Below are positions 24,727 to 55,014 of a stretch of 64,000 nt of DNA, piece by piece. The stretch spans positions 1-64,000 of IMG/VR virus record IMGVR_UViG_3300033487_000003. The stretch is one strand, 5' to 3'. The stretch is from a virus. Taxonomy: Duplodnaviria > Caudoviricetes. Within the stretch, counting starts at the first letter, position 1. Each line of letters starts with the position of its first letter. Under the pieces are notes generated by a model. The model was not told the DNA's origin, searched no databases, and worked only from the letters and a program-made list of their open reading frames with translations. A program made the position numbers and the translations under genes.

Positions 24727-24796
24727 GGGGAGACCCTCCCTACCCCACGAACAACATCATGATCATACTTAGGTGACAACCCCATCGGGAGGAACC

Positions 24797-25546: not shown

Positions 25547-25547
25547 C

Positions 25548-27826: not shown

Positions 27827-29545
27827 ATGACAACGTCCCAGCTACGAGAACCCTGGACGATGGCAGACGCCGAACTACTCGCCGAAGCAAGGGAACTTCA
27901 GCGCCAAGACGACCAGGACGCTGCCCACGATCCCGCCAAACTCCTACACCACCTCACCCCAACCACCTACCGCTACCGCACCCACCTGAAAGTCATCTCG
28001 TCCGCCCTGGTCGACGTCCGTCAGCAGCACGACGCGCGCACCAGCGTTCACGGACCCCGACTACTCATCGAAGAACCACCACAAACCGGAAAAACCGTTA
28101 CCGCCGTGGTCGGAGCGGCCTTCTGGTGGCTCATCCACCACCCCACCCACCGAATCGTCATCGGCTCACACGGCGACGCCCTCGCCGTCGACCGGGGCAG
28201 CGACATCAAAAAACTCGTCGAGGAACACGGCGACCGCTACGGACTCAAACTTGCCAGGGGCTCCACCAGCAAACAAGACTGGCGACTGGCAACCAGAGGC
28301 GGCGTCAAGAGCGTTGGTGTCGGTACCGGCATCGCAGGATGGCCAGCTGACGTCGTATTCGTGGACGACCCGCACAAAAGCAGACAGGAGGCTGACAGCA
28401 TCGTCAGCCGCGAGCGAGTCTGGAAGTGGTTCAGCGCGGACATCACGTCACGACTGGCACCAGGAGCCCCGGTCATCCTGATCATGACTCCCTGGCATCC
28501 CGACGACCTCGCCGCACGGCTCATATCAGAACAGGGCCGAATCGAAGAAAGCGGCAGGTGGCGGGTCCTACGCATGCCAGCCTTCTGCGACGATCCGAAA
28601 CGTGACCCCCTCGGCCGCAAATTCGGTGACCCCCTGCCACACCCCTTGATCCACCCCCGCGACACCAAATCACTCATCGACCACTGGAACGGACGCCGCG
28701 CGGCCTCGACCGTGCAGGACTGGCACAGCCTGTACATGTGCGACCCGAAACCCGAAGAAGGCGCCCTACTCCAACGCGCGCTTCTTCGCGAACGCCGCTG
28801 CTACATGACCAGCTCACCCAGTCACCCATGCGACCAGAAACCGACGAAAGCCGCCGTGGCGGTCGACCCATCTGGTGGTGGCCGAGACACCGCCGGGATC
28901 GTCGGTGGTTACCTTGGTTCCGACAAACGCCTCTATATCAGCCACGATTACACCGGCGTCATGCCCTCGGACCAATGGGCCAGAAGAGCATGCGAAATGG
29001 CCGTGCTGATCGATGCCGACCATGTGGTGATCGAAAACAACTTCGGTGGCGACATGGGTAGGTTGGCGATCCGCAGTGCGTGGGACGTCCTGATCCGAGA
29101 GGTCATGGAGCGCTACCAGAAGGCCAGAGACGAGGTAGGCCGCGACCGAACTCTTTCACCAGACACCCGACGCGCGGCCCTGGCCGAACTGGATGCCACG
29201 GTGCGCGCCTACCGGAGATTGTGTCCGAGGATCTCAACGGTCCGCGCCCGAAAGAACAAGCGGCTACGCGCAGAGCCGATCGCCCAGCAATGGACCGAAG
29301 ACCGCATCAGAACCGCCACATACCTACCCGAACTGGAAGATGAGTGGGCAACATGGCAACCAGACCTCCGCGACTCACCAGGTCGAATCGACGCGAGCGT
29401 GTACCTCGCCTACGACCTATTACCAATACCAGGAATGGGATCCGGTACGGTCCGCAAGGAACCAACCGGAAACCTACCCACCTCGGGTATGTCCCCGTTG
29501 GGTGGATCGAGTGGGGGAGTGTCGAGCCTCGGCCCACTCGGATGA
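27827..29545 (+). CDS. terL: terminase large subunit
   Basis: Walker A PPQTGKT, Walker B VFVDDP, MTPWH.DDL, RNase H-like VAVDPSGG, IENNFGG and SPGRIDA. Confidence 0.92.
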   Translation: MTTSQLREPWTMADAELLAEARELQRQDDQDAAHDPAKLLHHLTPTTYRYRTHLKVISSALVDVRQQHDARTSVHGPRLLIEEPPQTGKTVTAVVGAAFWWLIHHPTHRIVIGSHGDALAVDRGSDIKKLVEEHGDRYGLKLARGSTSKQDWRLATRGGVKSVGVGTGIAGWPADVVFVDDPHKSRQEADSIVSRERVWKWFSADITSRLAPGAPVILIMTPWHPDDLAARLISEQGRIEESGRWRVLRMPAFCDDPKRDPLGRKFGDPLPHPLIHPRDTKSLIDHWNGRRAASTVQDWHSLYMCDPKPEEGALLQRALLRERRCYMTSSPSHPCDQKPTKAAVAVDPSGGGRDTAGIVGGYLGSDKRLYISHDYTGVMPSDQWARRACEMAVLIDADHVVIENNFGGDMGRLAIRSAWDVLIREVMERYQKARDEVGRDRTLSPDTRRAALAELDATVRAYRRLCPRISTVRARKNKRLRAEPIAQQWTEDRIRTATYLPELEDEWATWQPDLRDSPGRIDASVYLAYDLLPIPGMGSGTVRKEPTGNLPTSGMSPLGGSSGGVSSLGPLG

Positions 29546-30953: not shown

Positions 30954-33011
30954 ATGGTCGGTATCCCCCGGCAACGCAAGCCGGCCGCCAAAGACCAGAA
31001 ACCCACCATCGAACAAGACCCCGCAATCGCTGACGCAAACCGCCGCGCACGGGCGATTGACCATGCCGAGCAGCTGGCCTACGTCGAAGAGCAACGCCGT
31101 AAGCAGCTGGAAGACGAACTTACCCATCCCGCACCAATAGACCCGGAGATTCGTCACGTTGCCCTGAAAGCCGCCGCGACCCGAACCCACACCATCACAG
31201 CGGCGGTTAGCCGGGTAGAACTCGACGGCGTCAGCTGGAAAAGCTACCGATTCGGTGACCGTGCCTGGCAGGCTGACGCGTGGCGACTGTACGACATAAC
31301 CGGACAACTCAGATTCGTGTCGAACTGGGCCGGGAACTGCCTCTCCCGCTGCATCCTACGCGTCCACGAGGTCGACGAGCAAGGAAACATTGGTGCGGCG
31401 GTCGAGAATCCGGAGATCGCACAGCTCGGATCCGGCCCACTAGGGGTAGGTGACTCCCGCGCGGAATCACTCCGACTGTGCGGCATTGACCTGTTCGTGT
31501 CCGGTGAGGCATTCCTGATCGCCGAGGCCGAGGGTAGCCCAGACGGCTCTGATCTCTGGTGGGTAGTGACCGCCAGACAGATCAAGCGGAATGGCGACGT
31601 CATCACCATTCCCCGCTCACCCCTCCACGGTGGTGGAATATTCACCTACCGTGATGGTATTGATCTGATCCTACGATGCTGGACCCCTCACCCCAACGAC
31701 ACCAACGAACCAGATTCCTCAACCAGATCCGCGATTCCGGACCTACGGAAAATGGAAGCCATCCGCAAGAGAGAATTCGCGGAACTCGACTCCCGTCTGA
31801 TCGGCGCCGGAGTCATGTTCGTCCCAGACAGCATGGACCTTCCCCGGGGAGAAGACGACCCACAGGGACCTGAAGGATTCTCCGCGCTCCTGATGCGCAC
31901 CATGGCAGCATCGTTGCGCGATCGGTCCTCGTCCGCCGCCATGGTGCCGATCATCGTGCAGGGCAACGCCACCGACATCGACAGGGTCAAGCATCTAACA
32001 TTCTGGTCGCCGATGTCGGAACAGCTGTCCGGCATGTGGCAGAACACCCTGATCAGCCTGGCCGAAGATCTCGACGTCCCACCCGAGGTCATGACCGGAC
32101 TCGGCGGGTCGAATCATTGGAGTGCCTGGGCGGTCAGTGACGCTGCGGTCACCGAACAGATCAAGCCATTGGCGTCCCGGATAGCCTCCGCCCTGACCAT
32201 CGGCTACCTCTGGCCAGCGTTGGAAAGCCTCGGCGTCGAAGACGTCACCCAGTTTGCCTACCAGTTCGACACGGCACTGCTGACGGTCCGACCGAACCGA
32301 TCCAGCGATGCGATGACCTACCACACCGCTGGTTTGATCTCCGACGAAACCGCGCGTACCGCCGGAGCGTGGGGAGACGACGATGCCCCATCCGAAGAGG
32401 AACGCGCACGACGTATCGCCGAGCAACTTCTCCTGTCCGCACCACAGATCGCCCTCGCCGACCCCGGTATCCGTCAGCTCCTTTCCCTCCCGGAAATAGG
32501 TGCGGTACCAGCGAACACAGACCAGGGACCGACCGGAGAGCAGCCAGCGCTCGAACCCGGTAACGAGGAGAACGGGCCACCAGACACGCAACCCCAGGGG
32601 ACCGACGGCCGCCCCGACGACCAGCAATCCCCACCACCACCAGTAGCAGCGATCGACCTCCATGGCTTGGACGTCGCACTTACCCTCATGGCACGTAGGG
32701 CTATGACCCTCGCCGGACAGCGTCTGGTACCACACACCCAGCGCTCCCGGTATGGCAAGGTTCCTGGATACCAGCTTTCCGCCAAACACGGCGCCGTACT
32801 CGCCGATCAGGTGTCCACCCTGCTCGCTAAAGCCTGGACTGACCTTGACATGGTCGCCCTACGGTACCGACTGGACACCACAGCACTGACAGAGCTCATG
32901 GACGGGTTCTGCCGGGAACTACTGATCCGAGGTATCGCCTATGGAGACGACCTCCTGAAGGACCTACTGTCCTCTCCAAACGTCATCCGGAGGTTGACGA
33001 ACCATGTCTGA
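30954..33011 (+). CDS. portal protein (cluster-B-like)
   Basis: AWRLYD..GQLRF..NW....SRC, PDSS.RSA, RL.GAG..F.P, NHWSAW..; position between TerL and MuF. Confidence 0.88.
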   Translation: MVGIPRQRKPAAKDQKPTIEQDPAIADANRRARAIDHAEQLAYVEEQRRKQLEDELTHPAPIDPEIRHVALKAAATRTHTITAAVSRVELDGVSWKSYRFGDRAWQADAWRLYDITGQLRFVSNWAGNCLSRCILRVHEVDEQGNIGAAVENPEIAQLGSGPLGVGDSRAESLRLCGIDLFVSGEAFLIAEAEGSPDGSDLWWVVTARQIKRNGDVITIPRSPLHGGGIFTYRDGIDLILRCWTPHPNDTNEPDSSTRSAIPDLRKMEAIRKREFAELDSRLIGAGVMFVPDSMDLPRGEDDPQGPEGFSALLMRTMAASLRDRSSSAAMVPIIVQGNATDIDRVKHLTFWSPMSEQLSGMWQNTLISLAEDLDVPPEVMTGLGGSNHWSAWAVSDAAVTEQIKPLASRIASALTIGYLWPALESLGVEDVTQFAYQFDTALLTVRPNRSSDAMTYHTAGLISDETARTAGAWGDDDAPSEEERARRIAEQLLLSAPQIALADPGIRQLLSLPEIGAVPANTDQGPTGEQPALEPGNEENGPPDTQPQGTDGRPDDQQSPPPPVAAIDLHGLDVALTLMARRAMTLAGQRLVPHTQRSRYGKVPGYQLSAKHGAVLADQVSTLLAKAWTDLDMVALRYRLDTTALTELMDGFCRELLIRGIAYGDDLLKDLLSSPNVIRRLTNHV

Positions 33012-33267
33012 CAAACCAAAGATCGACGCGCTAGAAGCAGCCCAGTCGTCACCAAACGCCATGGTCAATGCTCGGGGCGACGTATTCTACCCAGACGACG
33101 GAACAGAAGCAGCATGGTTCGCCATCGAACACGGAGCACGTCCCCTGTCTCCTGACCGGTTCCCATTCACTCCAGATCCGTTGACGGTCAAATATCTCTG
33201 GCCAGCGTTGAAAAGCCTCGACGTCGATGACGCCACCCAATATCGCCTCGAATGGGAACAGCAGTGA
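33004..33267 (+). CDS. small hypothetical protein containing a portal-derived segment
   Basis: overlaps both neighbours; YLWPALKSLDVDDATQY matches portal YLWPALESLGVEDVTQF. Confidence 0.55.
   Translation: MSDKPKIDALEAAQSSPNAMVNARGDVFYPDDGTEAAWFAIEHGARPLSPDRFPFTPDPLTVKYLWPALKSLDVDDATQYRLEWEQQ
33196..33239 (+). repeat. 44-bp copy of portal sequence 32208-32251
   Basis: 40/44 identical. Confidence 0.85.
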
Positions 33268-34076
33268 CCGAACCGTGGACCGGAGAAGGTACTGACCCGT
33301 GGCTTCCTGACCGGATCGGATTCGCCGAACAGGCCGCCGCCGCTGAGATGGCGGTACGTAAGCAGATATGGGCCGAACTGTCCGGCTGGCTGGTCGACGT
33401 GTCCCGCGTGGTTCTTGCCACGGCGCGTCCCGATCCGGTCGCAGTGTTCTCTCAGCAGCCGGCCTGGTCAGCTGCTGTGAACCGGATCGTGTCGGACACG
33501 ATCACCGACACGATCGGTACCGCGTACAAGACGATGCTCGGCGATGATTATCGGTTCGAGTCGCGGCCGATGGTCGTTGATCACCTCGCTCAGGTCACCA
33601 ACCGCATGGTCCGTACCCCGGATCAGGTCTTCGATCTGGTGGCGTCCGAGGTCGCCAGGGGTGCTGAGCTGGGCGAGTCGATTCCGAAGATCGCCAATCG
33701 AATCGAGGATGTGCTTGACGTGACGCGCACGGAGCGTTGGGCTAACCGGGCGACCGTGGTAGCTCGTACGGAGACGATGGGCGCGCTGAACGCAGGTCGT
33801 ACCGGGGCGTTCGCGGCGGTTGCCGAGGAGACCGGCGACGAGTTCGAACAGGTGTGGTTGGCGACGATCGACCGCCGCACCAGGTCCACGCACAAGACAG
33901 CAGATGGGCAACGGGTTCCGGTTGGGCAGCCGTTCATGGTTGGTGGCGCGTCTCTGAGGTATCCGGGTGATCCTCTCGGACCGGCCAAAGAGATCATTCA
34001 ATGCCGATGCTCGTCTTTGCTTGTGGAGCCTGGCGAAACGCTGGACCTGTCGAATCGTCAGTTTCGGACGGGGTGA
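33264..34076 (+). CDS. phage minor head protein (MuF-like)
   Basis: RA..VARTE, WLAT.D.RTR..H..ADGQ, YPGDP.GP..E.IQCRC. Confidence 0.85.
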   Translation: MTEPWTGEGTDPWLPDRIGFAEQAAAAEMAVRKQIWAELSGWLVDVSRVVLATARPDPVAVFSQQPAWSAAVNRIVSDTITDTIGTAYKTMLGDDYRFESRPMVVDHLAQVTNRMVRTPDQVFDLVASEVARGAELGESIPKIANRIEDVLDVTRTERWANRATVVARTETMGALNAGRTGAFAAVAEETGDEFEQVWLATIDRRTRSTHKTADGQRVPVGQPFMVGGASLRYPGDPLGPAKEIIQCRCSSLLVEPGETLDLSNRQFRTG

Positions 34077-34318: not shown

Positions 34319-36190
34319 ATGGGCACACGGTGGCGGGGCATGCTCGCCCCACTAGGAATACCAACAGGAGACGGACGCCGGTTTCTCGCCGACGGCATCA
34401 CCTACCGAGAACTCCCCCTTGCGCTGAAATGGCAACGCACCGACGAGGGAGGACACGACACCTCAGTCGTCGTCGGACTGGTCGACACGATCGACGTCCA
34501 AACCGACGCGGCGTGGGGAGAAGGAGAATTCTTCGATGACCTAGACCCAATCGAGTTTGAGCGTCTCCTGAAAGACGTCCGAGAGGCCATGCTCCTTACC
34601 GGCAAGAAGGTCATCGGCCCGTCCGTCGACCCTGGTGCGGTAGAGATGGCCTACGTCAGAACAGGTGATGACACTCCCCTGACCAGTGATGAGCTTGACG
34701 AGCTCTTCTGGGAAGAGATGGAGACCGGAGAACCCACCCAACTGGAACTCCTGTTCACCAAATACGAGATCAGCGCTGCGACCCTGGTCACAACCCCCGC
34801 GTTCGCCGAGTGTCGTCCGTTCGAACTCCTCGAACCAGCCCTGACCGCAGCCATTCGCTCATCAGGATGGGATCAGTTCCCACTGGGCGCGCGGGAAGCC
34901 GAATGGGACGAATCAGAAGCAGAGCGCCGTATCGCCGACGACGCGGGTATCGGGGGAGACAACCCCGACTGGGCCCGGTACGCGGAGGCGTTCCTGTACC
35001 GCGAGGACGACGCCGACCCAGAGCTGAAAGGATCGTACGGGTTCCAGATCATTGACGTAGTCGATGGTGAGCGGGTCATCATGCCCCGAGGAGTGTTCAC
35101 CGTCGCTGGGGTGCTGGAAGGATCGATGGGGGGAACCAACATCCCCGACCAGGATCAGCAGAACATGAAGGAAGTCGTTTCCGGCTTGTACGAGAGGATG
35201 GCCGAGGAGTTCGACGACGACACGATCGTCGTACCGTGGGAAACGTCCGCGTCGTCGTCCGCCGCCCTGGTCGCGTCGTTGACCGCCGCCGCTGCGACGC
35301 GCGTGTACGACCTCGCAGCGTTCGCGCCACCCGAGACCCCAGAGGACGGATTGGTCGGCCTGACCGTCACCGACGACGGTAGGGTGTACGGACACATCGC
35401 CGCCCACGACGTGTGTCACCTCGGCATCCCCGGGGTGTGCATGACCGCCCCGGTCGACCTCGTCGGATTCGACCAGTTCCACCGCTACCCGGTAATGGGC
35501 TCCGACGGGGAGCCGATCGCGGTAGGACGCCTCACCTACGGTGGGGGAAAGTTCGCCCACGCCTGTTCCTGTTGCCGGGGCAGTGACGATCACGCGTGCA
35601 ATGCCCTGTCGATGGGTGGGGCGATCGCCCACCACGACCAGATGACCACCGTGGCGTACGTGCGCGCGTGGGAAGACGCGGCGAACAACGCGATCAGAAT
35701 TTCGGGGGTCCTTGCCGAGGGTGTGACCGCCGATCAGATCAAGGCACTTGCCCGGGGACGGGTATCCGGGGACTGGCGGGCATACGGTACCGATCTGGCC
35801 CTGACAGAGATCCTGGTGCTCTCCCGAGAACGCCCTGGGTTCCCGCTGCCACGGGGTCGGATGGCAAATCAGCGGATGATGGCGCTGACAGCAGCCGGAA
35901 CGATCAGTCCGCGCCGTAAGAGCATGGCCGCTACCGTCCCGGACATCGACTACGAACGGTTGGCTGGGCTGATCGCGGACAGACTGACGTCGGCTGGTCT
36001 GCTCTCCAACGGGGTGGACAACACCACCCGGCAGGATGACGAGCGTCCTGTTGACAGCGCCGATACTGGTCAAACCGGTGAGGTGGAGAACCTGGTCGCC
36101 GAGCTGGGCGTGATCTTCGCAGGACGCGACGAGGTGGAAGCCCGCCGGTTGGCGGGAGAAGTGGAGATGATCACTTATGTGCTGCGGTAA
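34319..36190 (+). CDS. capsid maturation protease-like multidomain protein
   Basis: N-terminal TGDGR.F..LPL.L.WQ..GH..S..VG..SVD..AT.V..PAF; C-terminal GRVYGHIA..CH and SGDWR..GFP domain; position before capsid genes. Confidence 0.75.
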   Translation: MGTRWRGMLAPLGIPTGDGRRFLADGITYRELPLALKWQRTDEGGHDTSVVVGLVDTIDVQTDAAWGEGEFFDDLDPIEFERLLKDVREAMLLTGKKVIGPSVDPGAVEMAYVRTGDDTPLTSDELDELFWEEMETGEPTQLELLFTKYEISAATLVTTPAFAECRPFELLEPALTAAIRSSGWDQFPLGAREAEWDESEAERRIADDAGIGGDNPDWARYAEAFLYREDDADPELKGSYGFQIIDVVDGERVIMPRGVFTVAGVLEGSMGGTNIPDQDQQNMKEVVSGLYERMAEEFDDDTIVVPWETSASSSAALVASLTAAAATRVYDLAAFAPPETPEDGLVGLTVTDDGRVYGHIAAHDVCHLGIPGVCMTAPVDLVGFDQFHRYPVMGSDGEPIAVGRLTYGGGKFAHACSCCRGSDDHACNALSMGGAIAHHDQMTTVAYVRAWEDAANNAIRISGVLAEGVTADQIKALARGRVSGDWRAYGTDLALTEILVLSRERPGFPLPRGRMANQRMMALTAAGTISPRRKSMAATVPDIDYERLAGLIADRLTSAGLLSNGVDNTTRQDDERPVDSADTGQTGEVENLVAELGVIFAGRDEVEARRLAGEVEMITYVLR

Positions 36191-36356
36191 CACGATCGCC
36201 AGGAACTACGGTCAGGCAGGCGACAGTCAGCAGACAGGGTGGGTCGTGACCTACCCGAACGGAGCGACCGAGACGAAGACGACTGAGGTCGCCGCGCGGT
36301 TGGCCGCAGCCCTGGTGCCTGGGGCGAAGTATGTCAAGGCTGAGACATCCGTGTGA
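36177..36356 (+). CDS. 59-aa Cys-start protein (MCCGN...W.VT.PNG...EVAA..AA), not in the ORF track
   Basis: overlaps the protease 3' end; resembles small conserved ORFs that follow the protease in this head-module type. Confidence 0.6.
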   Translation: MCCGNTIARNYGQAGDSQQTGWVVTYPNGATETKTTEVAARLAAALVPGAKYVKAETSV

Positions 36357-36373
36357 CATTGACAGTGTGATGA

Positions 36374-36405
36374 TCGAGGCGCGGACCACCCGGTCCGCGC
36401 CTCGA
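36374..36405 (+). terminator. 14-bp hairpin
   Basis: TCGAGGCGCGGACC/GGTCCGCGCCTCGA. Confidence 0.55.
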
Positions 36406-36421: not shown

Positions 36422-36688
36422 ATGATTCAGCCAGACACCACTCCTAGGATCACCTGGGCTGTGCTGACGGTCCAGGACAGCGACGGCAAGGTCAGCGTCA
36501 TGGAGATCCCGGTCGGTAACAACATCGATGTGGAGTACGAAACTAGTTACAGGGAGTCACCGTATTTTCTTCTCGATGAGACGGTACCTGTGTCTACGAG
36601 ATCTCTCGGACAGAAATTGACAGTCGTGATCGAGGCGACGGTGGGAAACCCGAATGTGCCCCTGATGGTGCTGAGGGGCCATGGATGA
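36422..36688 (+). CDS. hypothetical protein
   Basis: GGGAGAG SD; coupled to the first glycosyltransferase. Confidence 0.55.
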   Translation: MIQPDTTPRITWAVLTVQDSDGKVSVMEIPVGNNIDVEYETSYRESPYFLLDETVPVSTRSLGQKLTVVIEATVGNPNVPLMVLRGHG

Positions 36689-37353
36689 GCGGATACACGG
36701 ACGCCGATCTTGTGATCCTCGTTCCGATGTTGGGACGGCCGCAGCACGTCGCTCCACTGTTGGCCACGATCGAGGCGACGGTCCCGAACGCCGAGGTGTT
36801 GTTCCTGTGTTCCCCGCAGGACTGGGCAGTTCTTGACGAGATCAAGAGCGCGGATAGGTCGTACGTCGAGGTTCCGTACTACCCGGTTGGTGACTACGCC
36901 CGGAAGATCAACAGGGGGGTGTTCGCCACCACCCATTCGCTGATCTTCCTTGGCGCGTCAGACCTCGCGTTCTACCCGAACTGGTTCGAACACGCGATCG
37001 AACACCTCCATCCCGGGATCGGTGTCGTAGGAACCAACGACCTCGGAAACGCGCGAGTCATCGCCGGAACCCACTCCACCCACTCCCTTGTGACCAGGGA
37101 ATACGCCGCCCTGGGAACCATCGACGCCCGAGAGAAGTTGCTCCATGAGGGCTATCACCACGAGTTCGTCGATGACGAGTTCATAGAAACTGCCCGATTC
37201 AGACAAGCGTTCGAAATGGCCCCAGAATCGATCGTCGAACACCTACACCCCAACTGGGGAAAGGCCACCACCGACCCGCTCTACGACCAACAACGACGCC
37301 GCATGGCCTACGGCCATCGGCTCTACAACCACCGGAGACGACTGTGGCAATGA
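36685..37353 (+). CDS. GT-A fold glycosyltransferase (GT2-like) 1
   Basis: VILVPMLGRP, KIN.G, FLGASD, FVDDE and VEHLHP motifs. Confidence 0.75.
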   Translation: MSGYTDADLVILVPMLGRPQHVAPLLATIEATVPNAEVLFLCSPQDWAVLDEIKSADRSYVEVPYYPVGDYARKINRGVFATTHSLIFLGASDLAFYPNWFEHAIEHLHPGIGVVGTNDLGNARVIAGTHSTHSLVTREYAALGTIDAREKLLHEGYHHEFVDDEFIETARFRQAFEMAPESIVEHLHPNWGKATTDPLYDQQRRRMAYGHRLYNHRRRLWQ

Positions 37354-37568
37354 CCCTTTCCCTGAGCGACCACGGCCCGACGATTCCACGCGAGCAGAGC
37401 ATGAACACAGCAATCGCACAAATTGGATGGATTGGAAAGACCGGAACCGTGTACCGACTCGACCAGCCACCCACGAGCAGTAGCGAACCGGGAGGTTTCG
37501 CACCGCTGCTGATCTCCGTCGGAACGTGGGAACACCTCGGAAACGAACATTGGGGTATCCATGACTGA
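37350..37568 (+). CDS. small hypothetical insert in the glycosylation cluster
   Basis: overlaps both neighbours; WIG.TG.VY motif. Confidence 0.45.
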   Translation: MTLSLSDHGPTIPREQSMNTAIAQIGWIGKTGTVYRLDQPPTSSSEPGGFAPLLISVGTWEHLGNEHWGIHD

Positions 37569-38172
37569 CGTGACCATCCTGGTCGCCACCTACGGTGATC
37601 AGGCATGGGAGCACCTCGCTCAGGTTCGTGCGATCCCATCGGCACAGGAGCAGGGTGTTCCGGTCATACACCGCCATGGCGCGACATTGCACGAGGCACG
37701 TAACGCCTGCCTGCACGCGGCGCGAACCACGTGGGTCGTACACCTGGACGCCGACGACGAACTAGAAGACCACTACATCACCACCTTGATGAGCGGATCA
37801 TCCGACGTCCGTGCCCCATCAGTGCGCTACGTGCAGGGCAACTACGCCCAACCACCACGGGTCCCCACCGTCTACGGACATTCGCACACCTGTACGGCAG
37901 AGTGTTTGCCCTACGGGAACTGGATCATCGTCGGAGCGCTGGCACGCAGACAGCTGCTCATCGACATTGGTGGATGGCGTGACTTCAGCTGGTCGGAGGA
38001 CTGGGACCTCTGGTTACGTTGTCACCTCGCCGGCGGAAGTATCGAGACAATCCCACAAGCCATCTACCGCGCACACGTCCGACTCGCCTCCCGTAACCGG
38101 GCAGCCAGCCACGAGCAACGCCTGGCTGTGCACCGCGCGATCGCCCAAGCGAATGGAGTACCCATACCGTGA
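37561..38172 (+). CDS. GT2 family glycosyltransferase 2
   Basis: VTILVATY, ARNA.L, HLDADD (DxD), IGGW, EDWDLWLR. Confidence 0.85.
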   Translation: MTDVTILVATYGDQAWEHLAQVRAIPSAQEQGVPVIHRHGATLHEARNACLHAARTTWVVHLDADDELEDHYITTLMSGSSDVRAPSVRYVQGNYAQPPRVPTVYGHSHTCTAECLPYGNWIIVGALARRQLLIDIGGWRDFSWSEDWDLWLRCHLAGGSIETIPQAIYRAHVRLASRNRAASHEQRLAVHRAIAQANGVPIP

Positions 38173-39182
38173 CGCAATTCGACCCGTACGCGCTTCTCGG
38201 CCGTGATCCGATCCAGATCAACCCCGACGGTTCGTACCTCACGGGCAAACGGGTTCTGGTCACCGGGGCTGGTGGGTCGATCGGATCCGTGATCTGTCGA
38301 CACGTCACCCGGTTCAACCCCGAAGAGCTGATCATGCTCGACCGGGACGAGTCCGCGCTTCACGCTGTCCAACTCGCCCTGACCGGTCGCGCCCTTCTCG
38401 CCGACGCGTCAACCATCCTCGGTGACCTCCGTGACCGTATGTGGATCTATCGGATTCTGACCCAACGGCGTCCCGAGATCGTGTTCCACGCGGCTGCCCT
38501 CAAGCACCAACCGCTCTTGGAGCGCTTCCCTGGTGAGGCGTTCAAGACCAACGTCCTCGGCACCCGGAACCTGGTACAGGCAGCGATGACCATCGGCGTA
38601 GGTGTCCTCGTGAACATCTCAACCGACAAGGCCGCTAACCCGTGCTGTGCGCTCGGTACGTCGAAGCGGATCGCCGAGCGCCTGGCATCCGGGTGTGCTC
38701 CCCGCCAGTACGTTTCCGTTCGGCTCGGCAACGTTCTCGGGTCGCGGGGATCGATACTGGAGACGTTCTCAGCCCAGTTGGATGCCGGCGTACCGCTGAC
38801 CGTGACCGACCCAGGCATGATGCGGTTCTTCATGACCGCTGACGAAGCGGTGTCCCTGATCGTGCACGCGGGGGCGATTGGGCGACCGGGTGAGGTGCTA
38901 GTACCCGACATGGGAACACCTGTACGAATCGTCGACATCGCCGAGCGGATGATATCCATGACCAGAGGAAATGGGAAGATCGCATACACGGGACTACGAC
39001 CAGGGGAGAAGGTGAACGAAGAACTTCTAGGGGCGGGGGAGCGCGACGAACGCCCATACCATCCGATGATCTCGCAGATTCCAGTTCCCGCGCTTACTTC
39101 GTCCGCGCTGAACATCGTCACGAGTTCCGACAACGGCTTTCCTGAGATCGCACAACAGATGATCACACTATGTAATCAATAA
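38169..39182 (+). CDS. CapD/PglF-like nucleotide-sugar 4,6-dehydratase (catalytic domain only)
   Basis: VTGAGGSIGS, FHAAALKH, ISTDKAANP, VRLGNVLGSRGS, RFFMT, GLRPGEK. Confidence 0.92.
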   Translation: MTQFDPYALLGRDPIQINPDGSYLTGKRVLVTGAGGSIGSVICRHVTRFNPEELIMLDRDESALHAVQLALTGRALLADASTILGDLRDRMWIYRILTQRRPEIVFHAAALKHQPLLERFPGEAFKTNVLGTRNLVQAAMTIGVGVLVNISTDKAANPCCALGTSKRIAERLASGCAPRQYVSVRLGNVLGSRGSILETFSAQLDAGVPLTVTDPGMMRFFMTADEAVSLIVHAGAIGRPGEVLVPDMGTPVRIVDIAERMISMTRGNGKIAYTGLRPGEKVNEELLGAGERDERPYHPMISQIPVPALTSSALNIVTSSDNGFPEIAQQMITLCNQ

Positions 39183-39193
39183 GGAGGCGTTTG

Positions 39194-39904
39194 GTGAACG
39201 ACGAGCAAACGATCGCCCTGGTCATCATCGGCGACGGCCGCGACGACTACCTCCGGAAGTGCGTCACCTCACTGCACTACCTCTCCGGGCCCATCGTCGA
39301 ACTGTGGATGTACGACGACACCGGAGACCCGATCTACCGCGACGACCTCGCCAGGCGATACCCGCCCTTTCGACACATCAACGGCGGACCACGCCAAGGC
39401 TGCGCAGGGGCATTTCAGCAGGTCTGGCGACAGGTCCGCAAAGACACCACGGCCCGGTTCGTGTTCCTCGTAGAGCAGGATTTCCGGTTCATCCGCCCGG
39501 TAGACCTCGTTGGAATGGCCGATCTCCTCGACGCTCGTCCGCACCTCGCCGAGGTAGCGCTACGTCGGCAGCCGTGGAACGAGGTCGAGAAAGCCGCCGG
39601 GGGCATCGTCGAGTCACACCCCGACTGGTACATCGACATGGAGGACGACGCCGGTCGGCAGTGGCTAGAGCAGGGCGCGTTCTTCACCACGAACTGTCCC
39701 TTGTTCCGCACGTCCCTTCTCGACGTCCCCTGGCCAGACTCGCGACCAGGCTGCTACTCCGAAGGCACCTTCCACCAACACCTCAAGATCCACGGAACAC
39801 CCGAGGTACCGGGAGATCAGGTCACCTACGCCTACTGGGGTGCCAGAGACTCCGGGGTATGGGTAGAACACATCGGCCAACACCGGATAGGAACAGGGTA
39901 CTGA
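39194..39904 (+). CDS. GT-A fold glycosyltransferase 3
   Basis: LVIIGDGR, MYDD, FLVEQDF, ALRRQPW, FTTNCPL, EGTF; GGAGG SD. Confidence 0.7.
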   Translation: MNDEQTIALVIIGDGRDDYLRKCVTSLHYLSGPIVELWMYDDTGDPIYRDDLARRYPPFRHINGGPRQGCAGAFQQVWRQVRKDTTARFVFLVEQDFRFIRPVDLVGMADLLDARPHLAEVALRRQPWNEVEKAAGGIVESHPDWYIDMEDDAGRQWLEQGAFFTTNCPLFRTSLLDVPWPDSRPGCYSEGTFHQHLKIHGTPEVPGDQVTYAYWGARDSGVWVEHIGQHRIGTGY

Positions 39905-39906
39905 TC

Positions 39907-40626
39907 ATGCTCACTGTCATCGTCCCCAGCCGTGGCCGTCCGGACGCGATGCTCGACCTGATCAATTCTGTGGTCGATACCCGACAGGTCGCCACGACGA
40001 ACGTGGTGCTCGCCGTTGACGACACTGACCCGATGCTCGACCTGTACGAAGAAGTGGTCAACGTTCGACCAGACGTCAGCAGACTGGAGGTCGTACGCGG
40101 TGGGTGGATGGTCGCCGCCCTGAACGAGGCCGCCCAGCGAGTCGTGGCGGACCCAGCCGTAACCGCTGTCGGATTCCTCGGAGACGACCACCGACCACGC
40201 ACGAAAGGCTGGGATGCCGCCTATCTGACCGCCCTACGACAGATGGGTGCGGGAATCGTCTACGGTGACGACCTTCTACAGCACGACTTCGTACCAACCC
40301 AGTGCGCGATGACAGCAGACATCATCCGACGAGTGGGATGGATGGCTCACCCGTCGCTACGGCACATGTACGTCGACACGCTGTGGCGAGACATGGCCAG
40401 AGGAGTCGGCAAGCTCCGCTACCTTCCGGACATCGTCGTTGAGCACCTTCACTACCTGAACGGAAAGGCGATCGAGGACGACGGCTACAAGCGCGTCAAC
40501 GACCCGCAGGTCTACAAGGCCGACGAGGATGCGTTTCGGCGACTCCACGCGACTGGGGTTGTCCGGTCGGCGTCCGAGGTGATCCGGCAGCTGGCGAACG
40601 TCGCACTCAACCAAAAGGAAATGTAG
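39907..40626 (+). CDS. GT-A fold glycosyltransferase (GT2-like) 4
   Basis: VIVPSRGRP, ALNEAA, FLGDDH, YVDT.W, VEHLHY; paralogous to 36685-37353. Confidence 0.75.
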   Translation: MLTVIVPSRGRPDAMLDLINSVVDTRQVATTNVVLAVDDTDPMLDLYEEVVNVRPDVSRLEVVRGGWMVAALNEAAQRVVADPAVTAVGFLGDDHRPRTKGWDAAYLTALRQMGAGIVYGDDLLQHDFVPTQCAMTADIIRRVGWMAHPSLRHMYVDTLWRDMARGVGKLRYLPDIVVEHLHYLNGKAIEDDGYKRVNDPQVYKADEDAFRRLHATGVVRSASEVIRQLANVALNQKEM

Positions 40627-40717
40627 TGAGCATATACGAGTTCGTTATTCCATTACCAACTGTAATGGAATGTGGAAGATGTCAAAACGCACGCCGAAAC
40701 GTCGGAGGTGAGAAGTT

Positions 40718-41731
40718 GTGAAAGTTCTTGTGACAGGATCTTCTGGATTTGTTGGTCGGCACATGTGCGAGCAGCTAAAACGTCTCGGATGGGACGTTGT
40801 TGGTGTCGACCAGAATAAAAATCGTAACGTATTGCAGAAGTTGACATTTTCGTCTGACAGCATTTTTGATGAGGAAAAGCCTTGGAACGTGTTCGTGCAT
40901 TCTGATGTACGGACCATCTTCTGGGAACGCTGTCGTCCTTTCTCCGAGAATGTCTTCGACGAACTGGCGGAAACCAGATACGACCTGGTGGTGCACTGCG
41001 CCTACCACGTCGGTGGGCGGGCTGCGATCGATGGAAACCCGTCGCTCCTGGCTCTGAATCTGGAACTCGACGCGCGGCTGTTCGAGTGGGCGGTCCGTAC
41101 CCGACAGCGCGCGGTCATGTACTTCTCGTCGTCGGCGGTCTACCCGATCAAGTATCAGCAGGGCGGGAAGCAGCCACCGCTGTCTGAGCACCTGATCAGT
41201 GTTGATGGTCCGGTTCAGCCTGACGCGCGGTATGGGTGGGCGAAGTTGACCGGGGAACATCTGGCAGATGCTGCCACGACGCAGGGACTACGGGTCCATG
41301 TGCTTCGGCCGTTCTCTGGGTATGGGGCTGACCAGGACGACACCTACCCGTTCCCAGCTATCTTGGCTCGGGTCCTTGCTGGTGACCTCTCCGTGTGGGG
41401 ACCACCTGGTCAGATCCGTGACTGGATCCATATCGACGATGTGGTTGGTGGTGCGCTTGCGGTCTACGAGAAGGATTATCGGGAACCAGTCAATTTGTGT
41501 ACCGGGGTTGGTACGGAGTTCGGCGTTCTGGCCACGATGATGGCGCGGCGATTAGGAATCGATGTCGGTGCTGTTGATCCCCGGGGGCGCGCTGAGCGGG
41601 TGACGTATCTAGAGGATCGACCAACGGGAGTATTGTGTCGGGTTGGTGATCCGACAAGGATGTTGAATATTTATGAGCCAGAGATTGGTCTTGATGAGGG
41701 AATTCGTCGCGCGATTGGTGACCTAACTTGA
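40718..41731 (+). CDS. NAD-dependent epimerase/dehydratase (extended SDR)
   Basis: VLVTGSSGFVG, FSSSAVY, YGWAK (YxxxK), RPFSGYG, RDWIHIDD. Confidence 0.9.
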   Translation: MKVLVTGSSGFVGRHMCEQLKRLGWDVVGVDQNKNRNVLQKLTFSSDSIFDEEKPWNVFVHSDVRTIFWERCRPFSENVFDELAETRYDLVVHCAYHVGGRAAIDGNPSLLALNLELDARLFEWAVRTRQRAVMYFSSSAVYPIKYQQGGKQPPLSEHLISVDGPVQPDARYGWAKLTGEHLADAATTQGLRVHVLRPFSGYGADQDDTYPFPAILARVLAGDLSVWGPPGQIRDWIHIDDVVGGALAVYEKDYREPVNLCTGVGTEFGVLATMMARRLGIDVGAVDPRGRAERVTYLEDRPTGVLCRVGDPTRMLNIYEPEIGLDEGIRRAIGDLT

Positions 41732-41831
41732 CCTGCGATCAGAGATCTTATGACACGATTCGATCCGAGACCGATGTGATCGAGGACATTGTGGGGAATG
41801 GAATCAGTAAGACGCTCGCGGAGGTGTGGTC

Positions 41832-42632
41832 GTGAAGGTCGTTGGTATCTCAATGGTCCGTAACGAAGCGGACATCATCGCACAAACCGTGCTTCATATG
41901 GCGTATCACTGCGACCACCTGATCGTCTCCGACAACATGTCGGACGACGGCACCCGAGAGATCCTGGACTACCTCGCCGAAGACCTTCCCCTCGACGTCG
42001 TCACCGACTCGGATCCGGCGTACTACCAGTCCAGGAAGATGACTTCCCTTGCCGAGCTGGCCGCGACCAGGTTTGGCGACGAGGATCTGTGGATCGTTCC
42101 GTTCGATGCCGATGAACTGTGGAATCCGTGGGATGATCCGAACCAGCCGATCCGGGAACTACTGGTCGACCGACTGTGCTGCGTCGCGCAGGCCGCCCTG
42201 TTCGACTACCGGGCAACGGCCCTCGATCCCCCCGGGATCTATCCGGTGAAGACGATGCAGTGGTGTACGGCGAAACCCGCAGGGTTGCCGAAGGTCGCCT
42301 TCCGGTGGCAGGAAGGAGCGCGGATCCATCAGGGCAACCACGGGGTGGACCTACCCGACGGCGGGTCGACGGAGATCCTTCTCCGCGTCAACCACTTTCC
42401 CTACCGATCCGCGTCGCAGTTCGTGTCGAAGGCCCTTCAAGGCGCTGCCGCGTATGCGGCCACTGATCTGCCCGAGGACATGGGTGCACACTGGCGCGCA
42501 TACGGTCGGCTATACCAGACCTATGGGCAACAGGTCTTGGAGGATGTGTTCCGACAGTACTTCTGGACGTTGTCTCCGACAGATAGCGACCTGATCCACC
42601 AGCCGGTCACCTACCACGGGGACGATCTGTGA
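41832..42632 (+). CDS. GT2-like glycosyltransferase 5 (Glyco_tranf_2_4 type)
   Basis: ISMVRNEADII, DNMSDDGT, PFDADE; GGAGG SD. Confidence 0.85.
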   Translation: MKVVGISMVRNEADIIAQTVLHMAYHCDHLIVSDNMSDDGTREILDYLAEDLPLDVVTDSDPAYYQSRKMTSLAELAATRFGDEDLWIVPFDADELWNPWDDPNQPIRELLVDRLCCVAQAALFDYRATALDPPGIYPVKTMQWCTAKPAGLPKVAFRWQEGARIHQGNHGVDLPDGGSTEILLRVNHFPYRSASQFVSKALQGAAAYAATDLPEDMGAHWRAYGRLYQTYGQQVLEDVFRQYFWTLSPTDSDLIHQPVTYHGDDL

Positions 42633-43384
42633 CCAGCGTTGGTGTGGTGATCCCCTGGTACCAGAAAGGTCCGGATCCGTGGCGTGAGCGGGCACTGGCT
42701 CATGTGCGCGCCTGGTGGGACACGGCTTTTCCGGGGAGAGTCGTCCTTGGGACCATCAGTAGCGACGATGGACCATGGCGTAAGGGCCTCGCCGTACACC
42801 GGGGGATCGCCGAACTCGACGCGGAGATCGTTGTGGTTTCCGACGCGGACGTGATTTGCGAGGGAGTAGACGACGCAATCGCTCAGATCAGCCGGTTTGA
42901 CGTCGGTTGGGCAATCCCGCATCGCATGGTCTGCCGACTGACGGCGGACGCCACGACCATGCTGCTACAGGACAACACCTACCCGCCTACTCCGACCCGC
43001 ACCGGGGTAACAGGTCCCCACTACGCGGAGGTCTATCCTGGCGCTCCCGGTGGTGGCCTGGTCGTTCTCCCCCGAAGACTCCTGGAGGATGTTCCGATCG
43101 ACCCGCGTTTCTGCGGCTGGGGTCAGGAGGACTACGCCTGGGCAAGGGCGCTGACGATGATCGCCGGACATCCGTGGCGAGGACGTTTCCCCCTGTTCCA
43201 TCTCTTCCATGAGCCACAGCAGCGAATGAGCCGAGGTATCGGCTCGTCGGACAGTCACAGATTGTGGCAGCGTTATCACACTGCCCCGAATCTTCCGGTC
43301 ATGCTGGACCTGATCGAGGAAGCACGGAAGGCTCTCCACACGACGACCGAGAAGACATTGTCAGATCCGCTGGCTACAATCTAG
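42629..43384 (+). CDS. GT-A glycosyltransferase 6 (GT2/GT7 C-terminal-like)
   Basis: VVIPW, VSDADV (DxD), GGG..L, FCGWGQED. Confidence 0.8.
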   Translation: MTSVGVVIPWYQKGPDPWRERALAHVRAWWDTAFPGRVVLGTISSDDGPWRKGLAVHRGIAELDAEIVVVSDADVICEGVDDAIAQISRFDVGWAIPHRMVCRLTADATTMLLQDNTYPPTPTRTGVTGPHYAEVYPGAPGGGLVVLPRRLLEDVPIDPRFCGWGQEDYAWARALTMIAGHPWRGRFPLFHLFHEPQQRMSRGIGSSDSHRLWQRYHTAPNLPVMLDLIEEARKALHTTTEKTLSDPLATI

Positions 43385-43610: not shown

Positions 43611-45380
<1,770 letters not shown>

Positions 45381-45421: not shown

Positions 45422-46201
45422 ATGGCAATCACACCCAGGATGGTCGTCGATCCTCCAGAGCCCCGTGGTTTGCGGTACGGGCTGTTCGTCGTCGCCAACG
45501 GCCCGAACGACCTCTTGCCGCACGGGGCTGCGGGTGGGGTGACCTACGACCCGGTGTCCTGCGGGCAGGCGCGCTACTACGACACGGCGTGCGGGGGTGA
45601 CGGGGGCGAGAAGACCTTCGACTCCAACGACGCGCTGATCACGGCGAACCCATTCACCGTGTACGCGTCGCTGACGTGCGGTTCCGCTGGTAGGACTGCG
45701 GCCGAACTGGAAACGAAGGTCCTGCGACGGCTGGCCAACGGAGAGCAGACGATCGCCGAGTACGGAATGGGTCTGGTTCTGGCAGCCGGTGCGACACCGC
45801 TCGCACCAGCTGACGGAACGATGACCGGGGTTGTCGCGGACCTTGAGGGCTGGCTGTACGGGATCGGCGGGGCCAACTACGGCAACGTTGGCTACCTGCA
45901 TGCCTCGTCCAGGATGGCCGCGTACGCGGCAGAAGAGAGCCTGGTGGTTCGTGACGGACCGCTGCTGAAGACCCCATTGGGATCGATCTGGTCTTTCGGT
46001 GGTGGCTATCCGGACAACGGAATGATCTACATCTCTGGTCAGGTGACCGTGTGGCGAACCCCGGGGATCTTCGTGACGCCACCTGGACAGGTCCTCAATC
46101 TGACCACGAATCAGTACTACATGCTTGCTGAGCGGGAGTACGCGGTGGCGTACGACTGCGTGGCGGCATCAGCGGTATTCGATTGGATGCCACTTTCATG
46201 A
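45422..46201 (+). CDS. major capsid pentamer protein
   Basis: P....YGLF.V, PFTVYA...C, L..P.G..W.FG.GY, AER.Y.V..DC; follows the hexamer gene. Confidence 0.7.
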   Translation: MAITPRMVVDPPEPRGLRYGLFVVANGPNDLLPHGAAGGVTYDPVSCGQARYYDTACGGDGGEKTFDSNDALITANPFTVYASLTCGSAGRTAAELETKVLRRLANGEQTIAEYGMGLVLAAGATPLAPADGTMTGVVADLEGWLYGIGGANYGNVGYLHASSRMAAYAAEESLVVRDGPLLKTPLGSIWSFGGGYPDNGMIYISGQVTVWRTPGIFVTPPGQVLNLTTNQYYMLAEREYAVAYDCVAASAVFDWMPLS

Positions 46202-46452
46202 TCATTATCAAGAATGTTCCTGGGCTCACCACGCCCGAAGTCATGGCGGCGATCGCTGACCAGGTCCCACTCGAACAGGTCGAAACCGGCTATGGCGGAA
46301 TCGTCGTCAACGAACGCACCGCCCTGACCTTCCTTCAGCGATACCTCGCGGCGGTCGACGGCGAACCACTCAGTACGAGCGAGGTACCCCCACCAGAGGG
46401 AACAACCAGGGCGCGCAGCCCTCGGAAGAGGAAAGAGGAGGTGGCGCCATGA
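46198..46452 (+). CDS. small hypothetical protein
   Basis: ATGA overlaps at both ends. Confidence 0.55.
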   Translation: MIIIKNVPGLTTPEVMAAIADQVPLEQVETGYGGIVVNERTALTFLQRYLAAVDGEPLSTSEVPPPEGTTRARSPRKRKEEVAP

Positions 46453-47147
46453 CGGCAACCTGCGACGAGTTCCTCCAGGGCTTCGCCGTTCGGCTGACCA
46501 AACTTGACACCTGTGGGGCGGTGGTCGCCGGAGCCTGCTCGACAGCCATCTCCGAGGGGTTCATCAAGGTTGAACTCGAAGCGGACGAGGCCGATGGTGA
46601 GGAGATCGAACAGACCCTAGCCAACGGAAAGCGCTGCTACTACCGCAAGACCGCTAAGCAGCTCAACGGGTACACGGTCAATATCGAATTCTGTAACGTG
46701 GACCCGGAGCTGTTCAACATCGCCACCGGCGTCAGTTTGATGCTCGACGATGCGGCATCGCCGGTGGCGCAGGGTTTCGCCGTCGACTCAGCTACCTACG
46801 CCACGGCGCATTTCGCCCTGGAGATCTGGACGGATCTATCAGACGGTGGATGCCTGGACCCCAGTGGTCGCAAGTGGGGATACATGCTCCTACCGTGGCT
46901 GCACAACGGCACGGTGTCACCACCGACGATCGAGAACGGGTCGGCAAACTTCATCGTCAATGAGGCGATGACCCGCGACGGTAACCAGTGGGGTGTGGGG
47001 CCGTACAACATCCAGACCACTCAGCTGGGTGTGCCGTCGCCGTTGTTCTCCCCGATCACTTCGACGACGCACTACGTCCTGTATAAGGTAAACACCGCTC
47101 CGCCAACGGGAGTGTGTGGTTGTCAGACCCTGGTACTGCCCACCTGA
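46449..47147 (+). CDS. major tail (tube) protein
   Basis: RLTKLD.CG, SEGFI.V.L, IEFC.VDPEL, FALE.W, WG.GPY; terminator follows. Confidence 0.8.
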   Translation: MTATCDEFLQGFAVRLTKLDTCGAVVAGACSTAISEGFIKVELEADEADGEEIEQTLANGKRCYYRKTAKQLNGYTVNIEFCNVDPELFNIATGVSLMLDDAASPVAQGFAVDSATYATAHFALEIWTDLSDGGCLDPSGRKWGYMLLPWLHNGTVSPPTIENGSANFIVNEAMTRDGNQWGVGPYNIQTTQLGVPSPLFSPITSTTHYVLYKVNTAPPTGVCGCQTLVLPT

Positions 47148-49984: not shown

Positions 49985-50401
49985 ATGACGATCAGACTTC
50001 CGATCGCATCCCGGAACGCAGCGGCTAACGCGGTCGTCGACTTGGTCGATGCCGGGGCCGGTTCCGGTCTGATTCGGCTCTATTCCGGATCCCAGCCGGC
50101 CAGCGCTGACCTTGCCGCCACCGGAACACTCCTAGCTATATTCACATGCAACGATTCGGCGTTCGGGCCGGCAGCGGGTGGGACGGCGACCCTCGTGGTT
50201 ACCCCAGCACTGTCGGCGACCGGGGTCGCCGCTGGTAACGCCGGGTGGTTCCGGGTCGTCGACAGCACCGGAGCAACCGTGTTTGACGGATCTGTCACAG
50301 CAAGTGGTGGCGGCGGAGATCTGATCATGAGTACGGTCACGGTCAGCGTCGGTCTGGCACTGAATCTGACCGCTGGTACGACGACGATGCCGGCATCCTG
50401 A
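49985..50401 (+). CDS. conserved virion structural protein
   Basis: G.I.LYSG.QPA.AD.A.TGTLLA...G.AGWFR..DS.G..V.DGSV..GG.DL pattern. Confidence 0.7.
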   Translation: MTIRLPIASRNAAANAVVDLVDAGAGSGLIRLYSGSQPASADLAATGTLLAIFTCNDSAFGPAAGGTATLVVTPALSATGVAAGNAGWFRVVDSTGATVFDGSVTASGGGGDLIMSTVTVSVGLALNLTAGTTTMPAS

Positions 50402-54959: not shown

Positions 54960-55014
54960 GGGATGATCATATTCTGACGTTGGATTGATCTTAACCACCA
55001 ATCATGATCATGAT
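54960..55014. promoter_or_regulatory. divergent leaderless promoters (HTH gene and tape measure)
   Basis: minus TATGAT-6-ATG; plus CATGAT-6-ATG 55015. Confidence 0.45.

Follow-up and report, generated by a model that had tools for sequence, protein, structure and literature searches.

An eight-enzyme sugar cluster in the head module of an uncultured phage probably serves glycosylation of its own virion

The late region of an uncultured tailed phage of actinomycetes (Caudoviricetes) raises the question of why eight sugar enzymes are encoded between a capsid maturation protease-like gene and the capsid genes. The window, which is the whole stretch of DNA analysed here, comprised bases 1-64000 of an 82,899-bp IMG/VR viral contig (IMGVR_UViG_3300033487_000003) with an estimated completeness of 93%. 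The original prediction had placed six GT-A glycosyltransferases (GTs), a CapD-type 4,6-dehydratase, and a short-chain dehydrogenase/reductase (SDR) at positions 36685-43384 and had proposed that they build a glycan coat on the virion. All eight enzymes were found there on the + strand, and the cluster probably constitutes late-expressed machinery by which the phage glycosylates its own virion. The virion is the favoured target because the cassette from which the cluster is built is confined to structural modules, neighbouring virion proteins carry a terminal Ser tag, this tag tracks the cassette, and one transferase, GTf, has homologues in the mycobacteriophages Che8 and Corndog. The proposed coat was thus supported on genomic grounds. 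The genes of the cluster were as follows.

36685-37353, + strand: GTa, GT-A glycosyltransferase, first gene of the core cassette
37561-38172, + strand: GTb, GT2-family glycosyltransferase (Pfam), core cassette
38169-39182, + strand: soluble PglF/CapD/WbpM-type nucleotide-N-acetylhexosamine (HexNAc) 4,6-dehydratase (PF02719), accessory module
39194-39904, + strand: GTc, GT-A glycosyltransferase, core cassette (likely start GTG 39194; alternative 39191)
39907-40626, + strand: GTd, paralogue of GTa (phrog_14945), accessory module
40718-41731, + strand: extended SDR, nucleotide-sugar epimerase or 4-reductase (PF01370), accessory module
41826-42632, + strand: GTe, Glyco_tranf_2_4 glycosyltransferase (PF13704), core cassette
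42629-43384, + strand: GTf, GT-A glycosyltransferase (phrog_1721), last gene of the core cassette

A search with GTa gave 65 viral loci, and a search of IMG/VR with the capsid protein gave further relatives (loci of both searches are numbered with L below). Genes in high-GC loci were called by hidden Markov model searches on six-frame open reading frames (ORFs). The core cassette, GTa-GTb-GTc-GTe-GTf in that order, was present in about 45-50 of the 65 loci. The window, L097, L099/L010, L098, and L137 were the only loci in which this core was interrupted midway by the genes for the dehydratase, GTd, and the SDR; the full eight-enzyme order recurred in L097 and L099/L010 (50-81% identity) and was partial in L098 and L137. 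GTd and the SDR occurred without the dehydratase in L119, L009, L012, and L013, and GTd always accompanied the SDR. Five transferases make up the conserved core of the eight-enzyme operon, and an accessory sugar-supply module is inserted into this core.

Wherever a locus offered sufficient flanking sequence and its capsid gene could be recognised, the cassette lay within the virion structural module. In the window, the cluster was flanked, as originally described, by the protease-like gene (34319-36190) and by the gene for the hexamer-type major capsid protein, MCPh (43611-45380). The same protease-capsid slot was occupied by the cassette in L093, L097-L099, L119, and L137. In L133, the cassette separated the head genes from the tail-tube gene, and in L107 and L125 directly after the tail-tube gene. 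Most often, the cassette was found downstream of a major capsid protein (MCP) of roughly 300 aa assigned to phrog_283 or phrog_10, at a distance of 10-2800 bp (in general about 450-1050 bp); the gene for this MCP came after the terminase, portal, and protease genes. Three unrelated capsid families, phrog_777, phrog_283, and phrog_10, therefore adjoined the cassette. In the tree of GTa, these capsid families were mixed, even inside well-supported clades, which indicates that cassette and capsid modules recombined several times and that their association arose repeatedly. Among the relatives obtained with the capsid search, only the closest (52-59% capsid identity) had cluster-homologous GTs in the same slot, and its content varied among them: GTf alone, GTe and GTf, or GTd-SDR-GTf. 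The slot of L007 contained another GT2 enzyme, a double methyltransferase, and GTf.

Copies of the cassette were also present in prophages and metagenome-assembled genomes, namely in Parafrankia soli NRRL B-16219, Parafrankia sp. FMc2, and Solirubrobacterales, Ilumatobacteraceae, Mycobacterium, and Gemmatimonas assemblies. In the prophage of Parafrankia soli NRRL B-16219 (L229, NZ_MAXA01000047.1, 67362-88027), a capsid gene whose product ends in ...LTTAGS was directly followed by GTa-GTb-GTc-GTe-GTf.

The virion proteins beside the cassette shared a short C-terminal tag. The reference C-termini were those of the Che8 capsid gp6 (...KTGS), the Che8 tail tube gp11 (...SDGS), and the Corndog capsid gp41 (...LVGS). 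When the MCPs adjoining the cassette were examined, 38 of 41 ended in Ser, and in 35 of 41 this Ser was preceded by Gly, Ala, or Ser (the [GAS]S ending); examples were ...NGAS, ...ATGS, ...NSGS, ...GQGS, and ...EAGS, and the preceding residues differed by lineage. The same ending recurred in cassette loci on proteins of phrog_117 (major tail protein), phrog_123 (tail terminator), and phrog_137 (head-tail adaptor), and the tail tubes of cassette-bearing relatives ended in ...GS or ...AS. A set of 80 loci of the phrog_283 capsid family was used as a control, in which distinct C-termini were counted. The [GAS]S ending was present in 11/11 distinct C-termini with cassette GTs nearby versus 6/31 without them (Fisher p = 3e-6, kinship uncorrected). 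Most of the other cassette-free C-termini stopped just after a conserved RAVK(I/L) strand and had no extension. The six tagged endings in cassette-free loci may mean that the tag is not exclusive to this cassette, or that other GTs lie out of range.

The candidate acceptor proteins of the window were encoded downstream of the cluster.

43611-45380, + strand: major capsid protein, hexamer type, MCPh (phrog_777, 5e-140)
45422-46201, + strand: pentamer-type capsid protein, MCPp (phrog_779)
46449-47147, + strand: major tail protein, tail tube (phrog_792, 1.3e-71)
49985-50401, + strand: 138-aa virion structural protein (phrog_3758)

MCPp, the product of the gene after the hexamer gene, was given its putative identity by analogy with Jabs (bioRxiv 10.64898/2026.07.24.740622). 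MCPh ended in ...DLGCCHS, MCPp in ...DWMPLS, and the tail tube in ...CGCQTLVLPT. The 138-aa protein ended in ...TTMPAS, which is an MP-x-S ending as in MCPp, and is a possible further acceptor; its homologues ended in ...TMPAS (L009), ...TMPAA (L008), and ...GVAG (L012). In the ten cassette-bearing phrog_777 relatives that showed these genes, MCPh and MCPp ended in Ser and the tail tube in Thr, and in cassette-free phrog_777 relatives MCPh mostly ended in ...GCCP. The hexamer protein of Jabs is described as having a C-terminal extension of 17 residues, which forms a turret at the surface in the centre of the hexon (bioRxiv 10.64898/2026.07.24.740622). By analogy, such a turret would place the window tag on the outside of the particle, the likeness being one of two-capsid-protein architecture only; sequence searches of the PDB with MCPh and the tail tube gave no match.

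Two further observations concern the C-termini of the phrog_777 lineage. Cys-rich C-termini were found throughout it (L006-L084), with ...GCC... in MCPh and ...CGCQ... in the tail tube, whether or not GTs were present. Disulfide-linked virions are described for the two-capsid-protein architecture in the Jabs preprint, which names other cysteines (bioRxiv 10.64898/2026.07.24.740622). In addition, transferases like Che8 gp110 and Corndog gp38 were encoded in cassette-free relatives, 7-9 kb downstream of the capsid gene (L020/L079, 18.0-19.8 kb; L027, 17.9-19.0 kb; L041, 17.5-18.6 kb). In these relatives, MCPh and the tail tube shared an ...(V/T)IESP or ...SP tail, which looks like a second, different pairing of tag and enzyme in the same capsid lineage.

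The virion proteins might instead be glycosylated elsewhere than at the C-terminal residue, on internal Ser or Thr, on the Cys-rich tails (...GCC..., ...CGC...), or on a minor component such as the 932-aa fibre-like protein. The conserved Cys-rich C-termini of MCPh and the tail tube in the window lineage would suit such sites, as would window tags that are unlike Gly-Ser, and S-glycosylation of Cys by GT2-family enzymes is known from glycocins. However, the Cys motifs were equally conserved in cassette-free relatives, and the terminal Ser or Thr was the feature that co-varied with the cassette. Other attachment sites are therefore unlikely.

The enzyme assignments of the original prediction were upheld when each ORF was classified with Pfam, PHROG, PDB, Foldseek, and Atlas. 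GT-A membership was given by Pfam for GTb and GTe, by structure models for GTa and GTf, by paralogy for GTd, and by a borderline Pfam score together with the Atlas for GTc. Acidic DxD-type motifs, whose loss would have spoken against active transferases, were conserved in each of the six family alignments, with one caveat for GTa: Asp93 was invariant, and position 92 was Ser where the family consensus is Asp (Ser-Asp versus Asp-Asp). GTa had no Pfam match, a weak PHROG match only, and no match among 50,697 GenBank phage records, and its profile reached an E of about 0.5 against PDB sequences. The fold search gave GT-A instead: the AlphaFold (AF2) model of GTa (pLDDT 94.5) matched SpsA, WrtF, and GpgS in Foldseek at an E of about 1e-8, and PcManGT was among the matches as well. 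Some of its 2384 homologues carried PF00535 or PF13641.

GTb matched PF13632 (Glyco_trans_2_3, 41.3 bits) and also PF13641 and PF00535, and its motifs LDADDELE and SEDWDLW were kept across 46 homologues. GTc scored 23.1 bits with PF00535, just under the cut-off of 23.3, matched phrog_3047 at 1e-9, and was grouped in the ESM Atlas with GT2 viral clusters at 0.99. GTe matched PF13704 with 47.6 bits and kept PFDADE across 40 homologues. GTd matched phrog_14945 at 1.5e-37 and was paralogous to the GTa family (hhalign 98.3%). Its homologues included the N-terminal domain of Pas34 of phage phiAsp2 and Streptomyces and Arthrobacter phage genes annotated 'glycosyltransferase'. GTd also matched phrog_2675 ('DNA methyltransferase'), because Pas34 is a fusion of a GTd-like domain with an O-methyltransferase. 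In the Actinoplanes phage phiAsp2 (L086, 28287-31466), Pas33 (a GT), Pas34, and Pas35 were encoded after the tail genes.

In blastp, GTf matched Corndog gp37 (E 2.6e-12, 26% identity over 196 aa) and Che8 gp109 (E 9e-8). Its AF2 model (pLDDT 90.7) was of the GT-A fold, its closest Foldseek neighbours were beta4GalT1, chondroitin synthase, and ppGalNAc-T2, and the motifs DAD and GWGQED were conserved. Another homologue of GTf, gp73 of Streptomyces phage Satis (L087; one of the roughly 186-kb Streptomyces phages), was encoded amid helicase, DnaQ, Cas4, primase, and polymerase genes.

The dehydratase is a soluble form of the PglF/CapD/WbpM type, as judged from its sequence. It matched Polysacc_synt_2 (PF02719) with 300.8 bits against a cut-off of 20.2, and its best PDB match was PglF (5BJU, E 2.6e-58); over residues 9-296, it was about 40% identical to the PglF catalytic domain. 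The motif TGAGGSIGS for nucleotide binding was kept, as was ISTDKA, which aligned to ISTDKA of PglF. Thr-Asp-Lys is what we take to be the catalytic motif of PglF, and Met405 of PglF presumably occupies the position of the classical SDR Tyr. The window enzyme has Leu at the Met405 position, and the PDB variant 5BJY has Tyr there. The glycine motif, Thr-Asp-Lys, and a non-Tyr residue at the SDR Tyr position were thus common to the window enzyme and to PglF, CapD, and WbpM. In contrast to these three, which carry an N-terminal membrane domain, the phage-encoded enzyme (337 aa) began at the linker that precedes the Rossmann fold, and its maximum hydropathy was 1.34. It scored below the NCBIfam equivalog cut-offs for PseB (168 versus 407.75 bits) and FnlA (127.9 versus 730 bits). 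PglF of C. jejuni, CapD of S. aureus, and WbpM of P. aeruginosa are 4,6-dehydratases of uridine diphosphate N-acetylglucosamine (UDP-GlcNAc).

The SDR matched PF01370 with 130 bits and had the motifs GSSGFVG, SSS, and YGWAK. It carried the Ser/Tyr/Lys set of an epimerase or reductase, had no dehydratase D/E pair, and was only distant kin to characterised enzymes; its PDB neighbours were UDP-glucose and UDP-glucuronate 4-epimerases, GDP-mannose 3,5-epimerase, and GDP-fucose synthase. The third-position GC of the GTd-SDR segment was below that of its neighbours (0.59 for the SDR). Neither the dehydratase nor the SDR had a close match in any cultured actinophage of the GenBank phage set. Neither a PglE-type aminotransferase nor a PglD-type acetyltransferase was present, which makes a bacillosamine route unlikely. 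The simplest continuation after the dehydratase would be 4-reduction to N-acetylquinovosamine (QuiNAc) or N-acetylfucosamine (FucNAc). The deoxy sugar originally ascribed to the phage is plausible as far as the dehydratase goes, whereas the SDR is no more than a candidate for its dedicated 4-reductase partner, because the SDR and GTd also occur without the dehydratase (L009, L012, L013, L119).

PglF, CapD, and WbpM normally supply surface polysaccharides, and the cluster could likewise modify a host cell-envelope glycopolymer or glycolipid (arabinogalactan, a teichoic-acid-like polymer, surface glycolipids) and so block superinfection or virion re-adsorption, the slot being a permissive moron site. 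The content of the slot between protease and MCP genes indeed varies, with unrelated reverse-strand genes there in phiAsp2 and further relatives, and the PDB neighbours of GTa include the wall-polymer enzymes RmlT and WrtF. However, the cluster had no membrane-anchored GT, polyprenyl-phosphate transferase, or flippase, no transmembrane-like (hydrophobic) segment was found in any of its proteins, and its dehydratase lacked the membrane domain of PglF, CapD, and WbpM. Moreover, the cassette was encoded on the same strand and coupled within the late structural operons of three unrelated capsid lineages, and Ser tags on virion proteins that are tracked by the cassette are not predicted by a role in the host envelope. 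Such a role consequently appears improbable.

Glycosylation of the phage particle itself has a precedent. Virion O-glycosylation was reportedly first shown in 2023 by Freeman et al. in a few mycobacteriophages with two or three transferases (Che8 gp108-110; Corndog gp35-38; Myrna), and the O-glycans are said to be located at the C-termini of Che8 gp6 and gp11 and of Corndog gp41. Capsid and tail tube are the reported targets of the GT sets of both phages, and Che8 gp110 and Corndog gp38 are called essential for capsid glycosylation (PMC12363180). In Corndog, an O-methyltransferase and three GTs lie between the gene for the portal and that for the protease (PMC4351075), so that a GT cluster inside the head module is in itself not new.

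Judged from the sequences, the window system probably works like the virion glycosylation of Che8 and Corndog, with which it shares one transferase family, GTf (gp109/gp37), and the Ser tag. In both, phage GT-A transferases are expressed with or inside the structural genes (in Corndog also inside the head module), and a short C-terminal Ser tag is present on capsid and tail-tube subunits (Thr on the window tail tube). However, glycans on virion proteins are reported for Che8 and Corndog, whereas the window system is known from its genes. New in comparison with these phages are the number and families of the transferases, the dehydratase and SDR, the capsid family, and the wide uncultured distribution of the core. 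Six transferases, a PglF-like dehydratase, and an SDR stand against two or three transferases in Che8 and Corndog, in line with the original suggestion of a more elaborate system, and the capsid is of another family with hexamer and pentamer proteins. Furthermore, the tag of cassette-bearing relatives also occurs on terminator and adaptor proteins, and the O-methyltransferase and gp110/gp38 have no counterpart in the window phage.

Virus-encoded glycosylation clusters and nucleotide-sugar pathways are also known from the capsid glycans of chlorovirus PBCV-1 and the fibril glycans of Mimivirus. These giant viruses likewise have their own nucleotide-sugar enzymes and several GT-As, and make a complex particle glycan independently of host machinery. 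They differ in their eukaryotic hosts, capsid architecture, and attachment chemistry, and the common ground lies in the general SDR and GT-A folds.

Several points weigh against virion glycosylation through a C-terminal tag. The [GAS]S ending also occurred in the six distinct cassette-free phrog_283 C-termini, and the statistics that link tag and cassette are not fully corrected for relatedness. The window tags are H-S, L-S, and P-T and thus unlike the Gly-Ser ending that accompanies the plain five-GT cassette, and the MCPs of three distant phrog_777-like loci (L107, L125, L133) did not end in Ser. No homologue of Che8 gp110 or Corndog gp38 was found in the cluster (blastp, phmmer; hhalign <=17%), and such homologues were present in the relatives L027, L041, and L079. 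Finally, the GTf homologue of Satis is placed among replication genes and not among structural genes.

The position of the Satis gene could also be taken to favour the least probable alternative, in which the sugars are attached to the phage DNA, on a hypermodified base (T4, RB69, 5-hydroxymethylcytosine/5-hydroxycytosine type) or on 7-deazaguanine bases. This is very unlikely, since in the loci examined the cassette adjoined capsid or tail genes and never genes of pyrimidine-hydroxylating type. We know of no glycosylated deazaguanine in DNA. The phage does modify its DNA through queC-queD-queE-folE, and many metavirome clusters have GT-As with DxD/ED motifs that glycosylate DNA, at times with epimerases near (bioRxiv 10.1101/2023.12.21.572611). 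Clusters for DNA sugar hypermodification resemble the window cluster in their series of GT-As, sometimes with epimerases, but they include or adjoin a thymidylate-synthase homologue or 5mYOX/TET and a methyltransferase, whereas the context in the window was capsid and tail genes (bioRxiv 10.1101/2023.12.21.572611; PMC13326640). In the 83-kb genome (93% complete), no PF00303 (thymidylate synthase) or PF00145 (C5 methylase) was found, and the positive controls for these worked; a search for Tet_JBP (PF12851) also gave no match, but its control gave no signal either. The queC, queD-like, queE, and folE genes were located at 24773-27338 and make up a full preQ0 pathway, which serves the modification of DNA with 7-deazaguanine, as in Rosebush-type phages.

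For glycosylation of the virion, the following course is proposed. Late in infection, one transferase would recognise the free C-terminal tails of assembled or assembling major virion proteins, namely MCPh (...CCHS), MCPp (...MPLS), the tail tube (...LPT), and perhaps the 138-aa protein (...MPAS), and would put the first sugar on the terminal Ser or Thr. Candidates for this initiating enzyme are GTa, which is the most conserved, and GTf, which is the Che8 gp109 homologue with ppGalNAc-T-like neighbours. The remaining transferases would lengthen the sugar to an oligosaccharide of several different residues. In the window phage and a few relatives, the inserted module would widen the sugar repertoire: the dehydratase would convert a host UDP-HexNAc to a 4-keto-6-deoxy intermediate, and the SDR would reduce or epimerise this intermediate or another host nucleotide sugar. 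The product of the module would be a 6-deoxy-HexNAc of QuiNAc or FucNAc type, which is probably transferred by GTd, the constant companion of the SDR. Head and tail would thereby receive a glycan coat, with shielding, stability, or adhesion in soil or wetland as possible benefits.

The late region of the window had the gene order of Rosebush/phiAsp2-type siphoviruses, and its other features were as follows.

27827-29545: terminase large subunit
30954-33011: portal
33252-34076: MuF-like protein
34319-36190, + strand: capsid maturation protease-like gene, upstream boundary of the slot (phrog_21470/859/18402)
36376-36403, + strand: hairpin with a perfect 12-bp stem and the loop ACCC, read from the sequence
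36422-36688, + strand: 88-aa ORF, ATGA-coupled to GTa, no family match
37344-37568, + strand: 74-aa ORF between GTa and GTb, specific to the window
54985-58593: tape measure

In Microbacterium phage FuzzBuster, the homologue of the protease-like gene carries the annotation capsid maturation protease. A 59-aa ORF with the start MCCG (36177-36356) overlapped the protease stop codon. The hairpin was located within the 230 bp that separate the protease gene from the cluster; TTGACA was present ahead of it at 36359-36364, and no T-run followed it. Ten same-strand ORFs filled the slot, of which eight were the sugar enzymes. The sole homologue of the 88-aa ORF sits elsewhere in L097, which places this ORF outside the conserved cassette. 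The 74-aa ORF had no homologue in any locus examined, and GTa and GTb abutted directly in other contigs. The genes were mostly coupled, as first described: ATGA overlaps were found at 36685, 38169, and 42629, an 8-bp overlap at 37561, and gaps of 2-11 bp at GTc and GTd, while gaps of 91 and 94 bp flanked the SDR. The GTG at 39194, preceded by AGGAGG, is the probable start of GTc, and the true start of GTd is the ATG at 39907, not 39901. The 8-kb region had no megablast match among GenBank phages. A rubrerythrin/ferritin-like protein was encoded by the phage at 22833-23744 on the - strand.

Beyond the window phage, it is an even call whether the five-GT cassette and the C-terminal Ser tag form a portable, tag-directed system that has spread across unrelated capsid lineages in phages of Actinomycetota and perhaps in those of other soil phyla. 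Such a system, so far without a cultured phage, would mark capsid, tail tube, terminator, and adaptor proteins, and its version in the window would make its own donor of 6-deoxy-HexNAc type and build a heteroglycan of at least six residues. S-glycosylation of the Cys-rich tails of this lineage would be a less likely extension of the system. If these readings are true, self-glycosylation would be a widespread modular trait of environmental actinophages, and particle glycosylation would be far more elaborate than known, phage-made nucleotide sugars included. Virion glycosylation would become predictable from sequence, with the cassette and the terminal Ser tag as a simple rule for the modified proteins, and the prophage of Parafrankia soli NRRL B-16219 offers a cultured entry point to the cassette. 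The enzymes would also provide a toolbox for sugar-coated phage particles, which bears on particle stability and on antibody recognition, as discussed for therapeutic mycobacteriophages.

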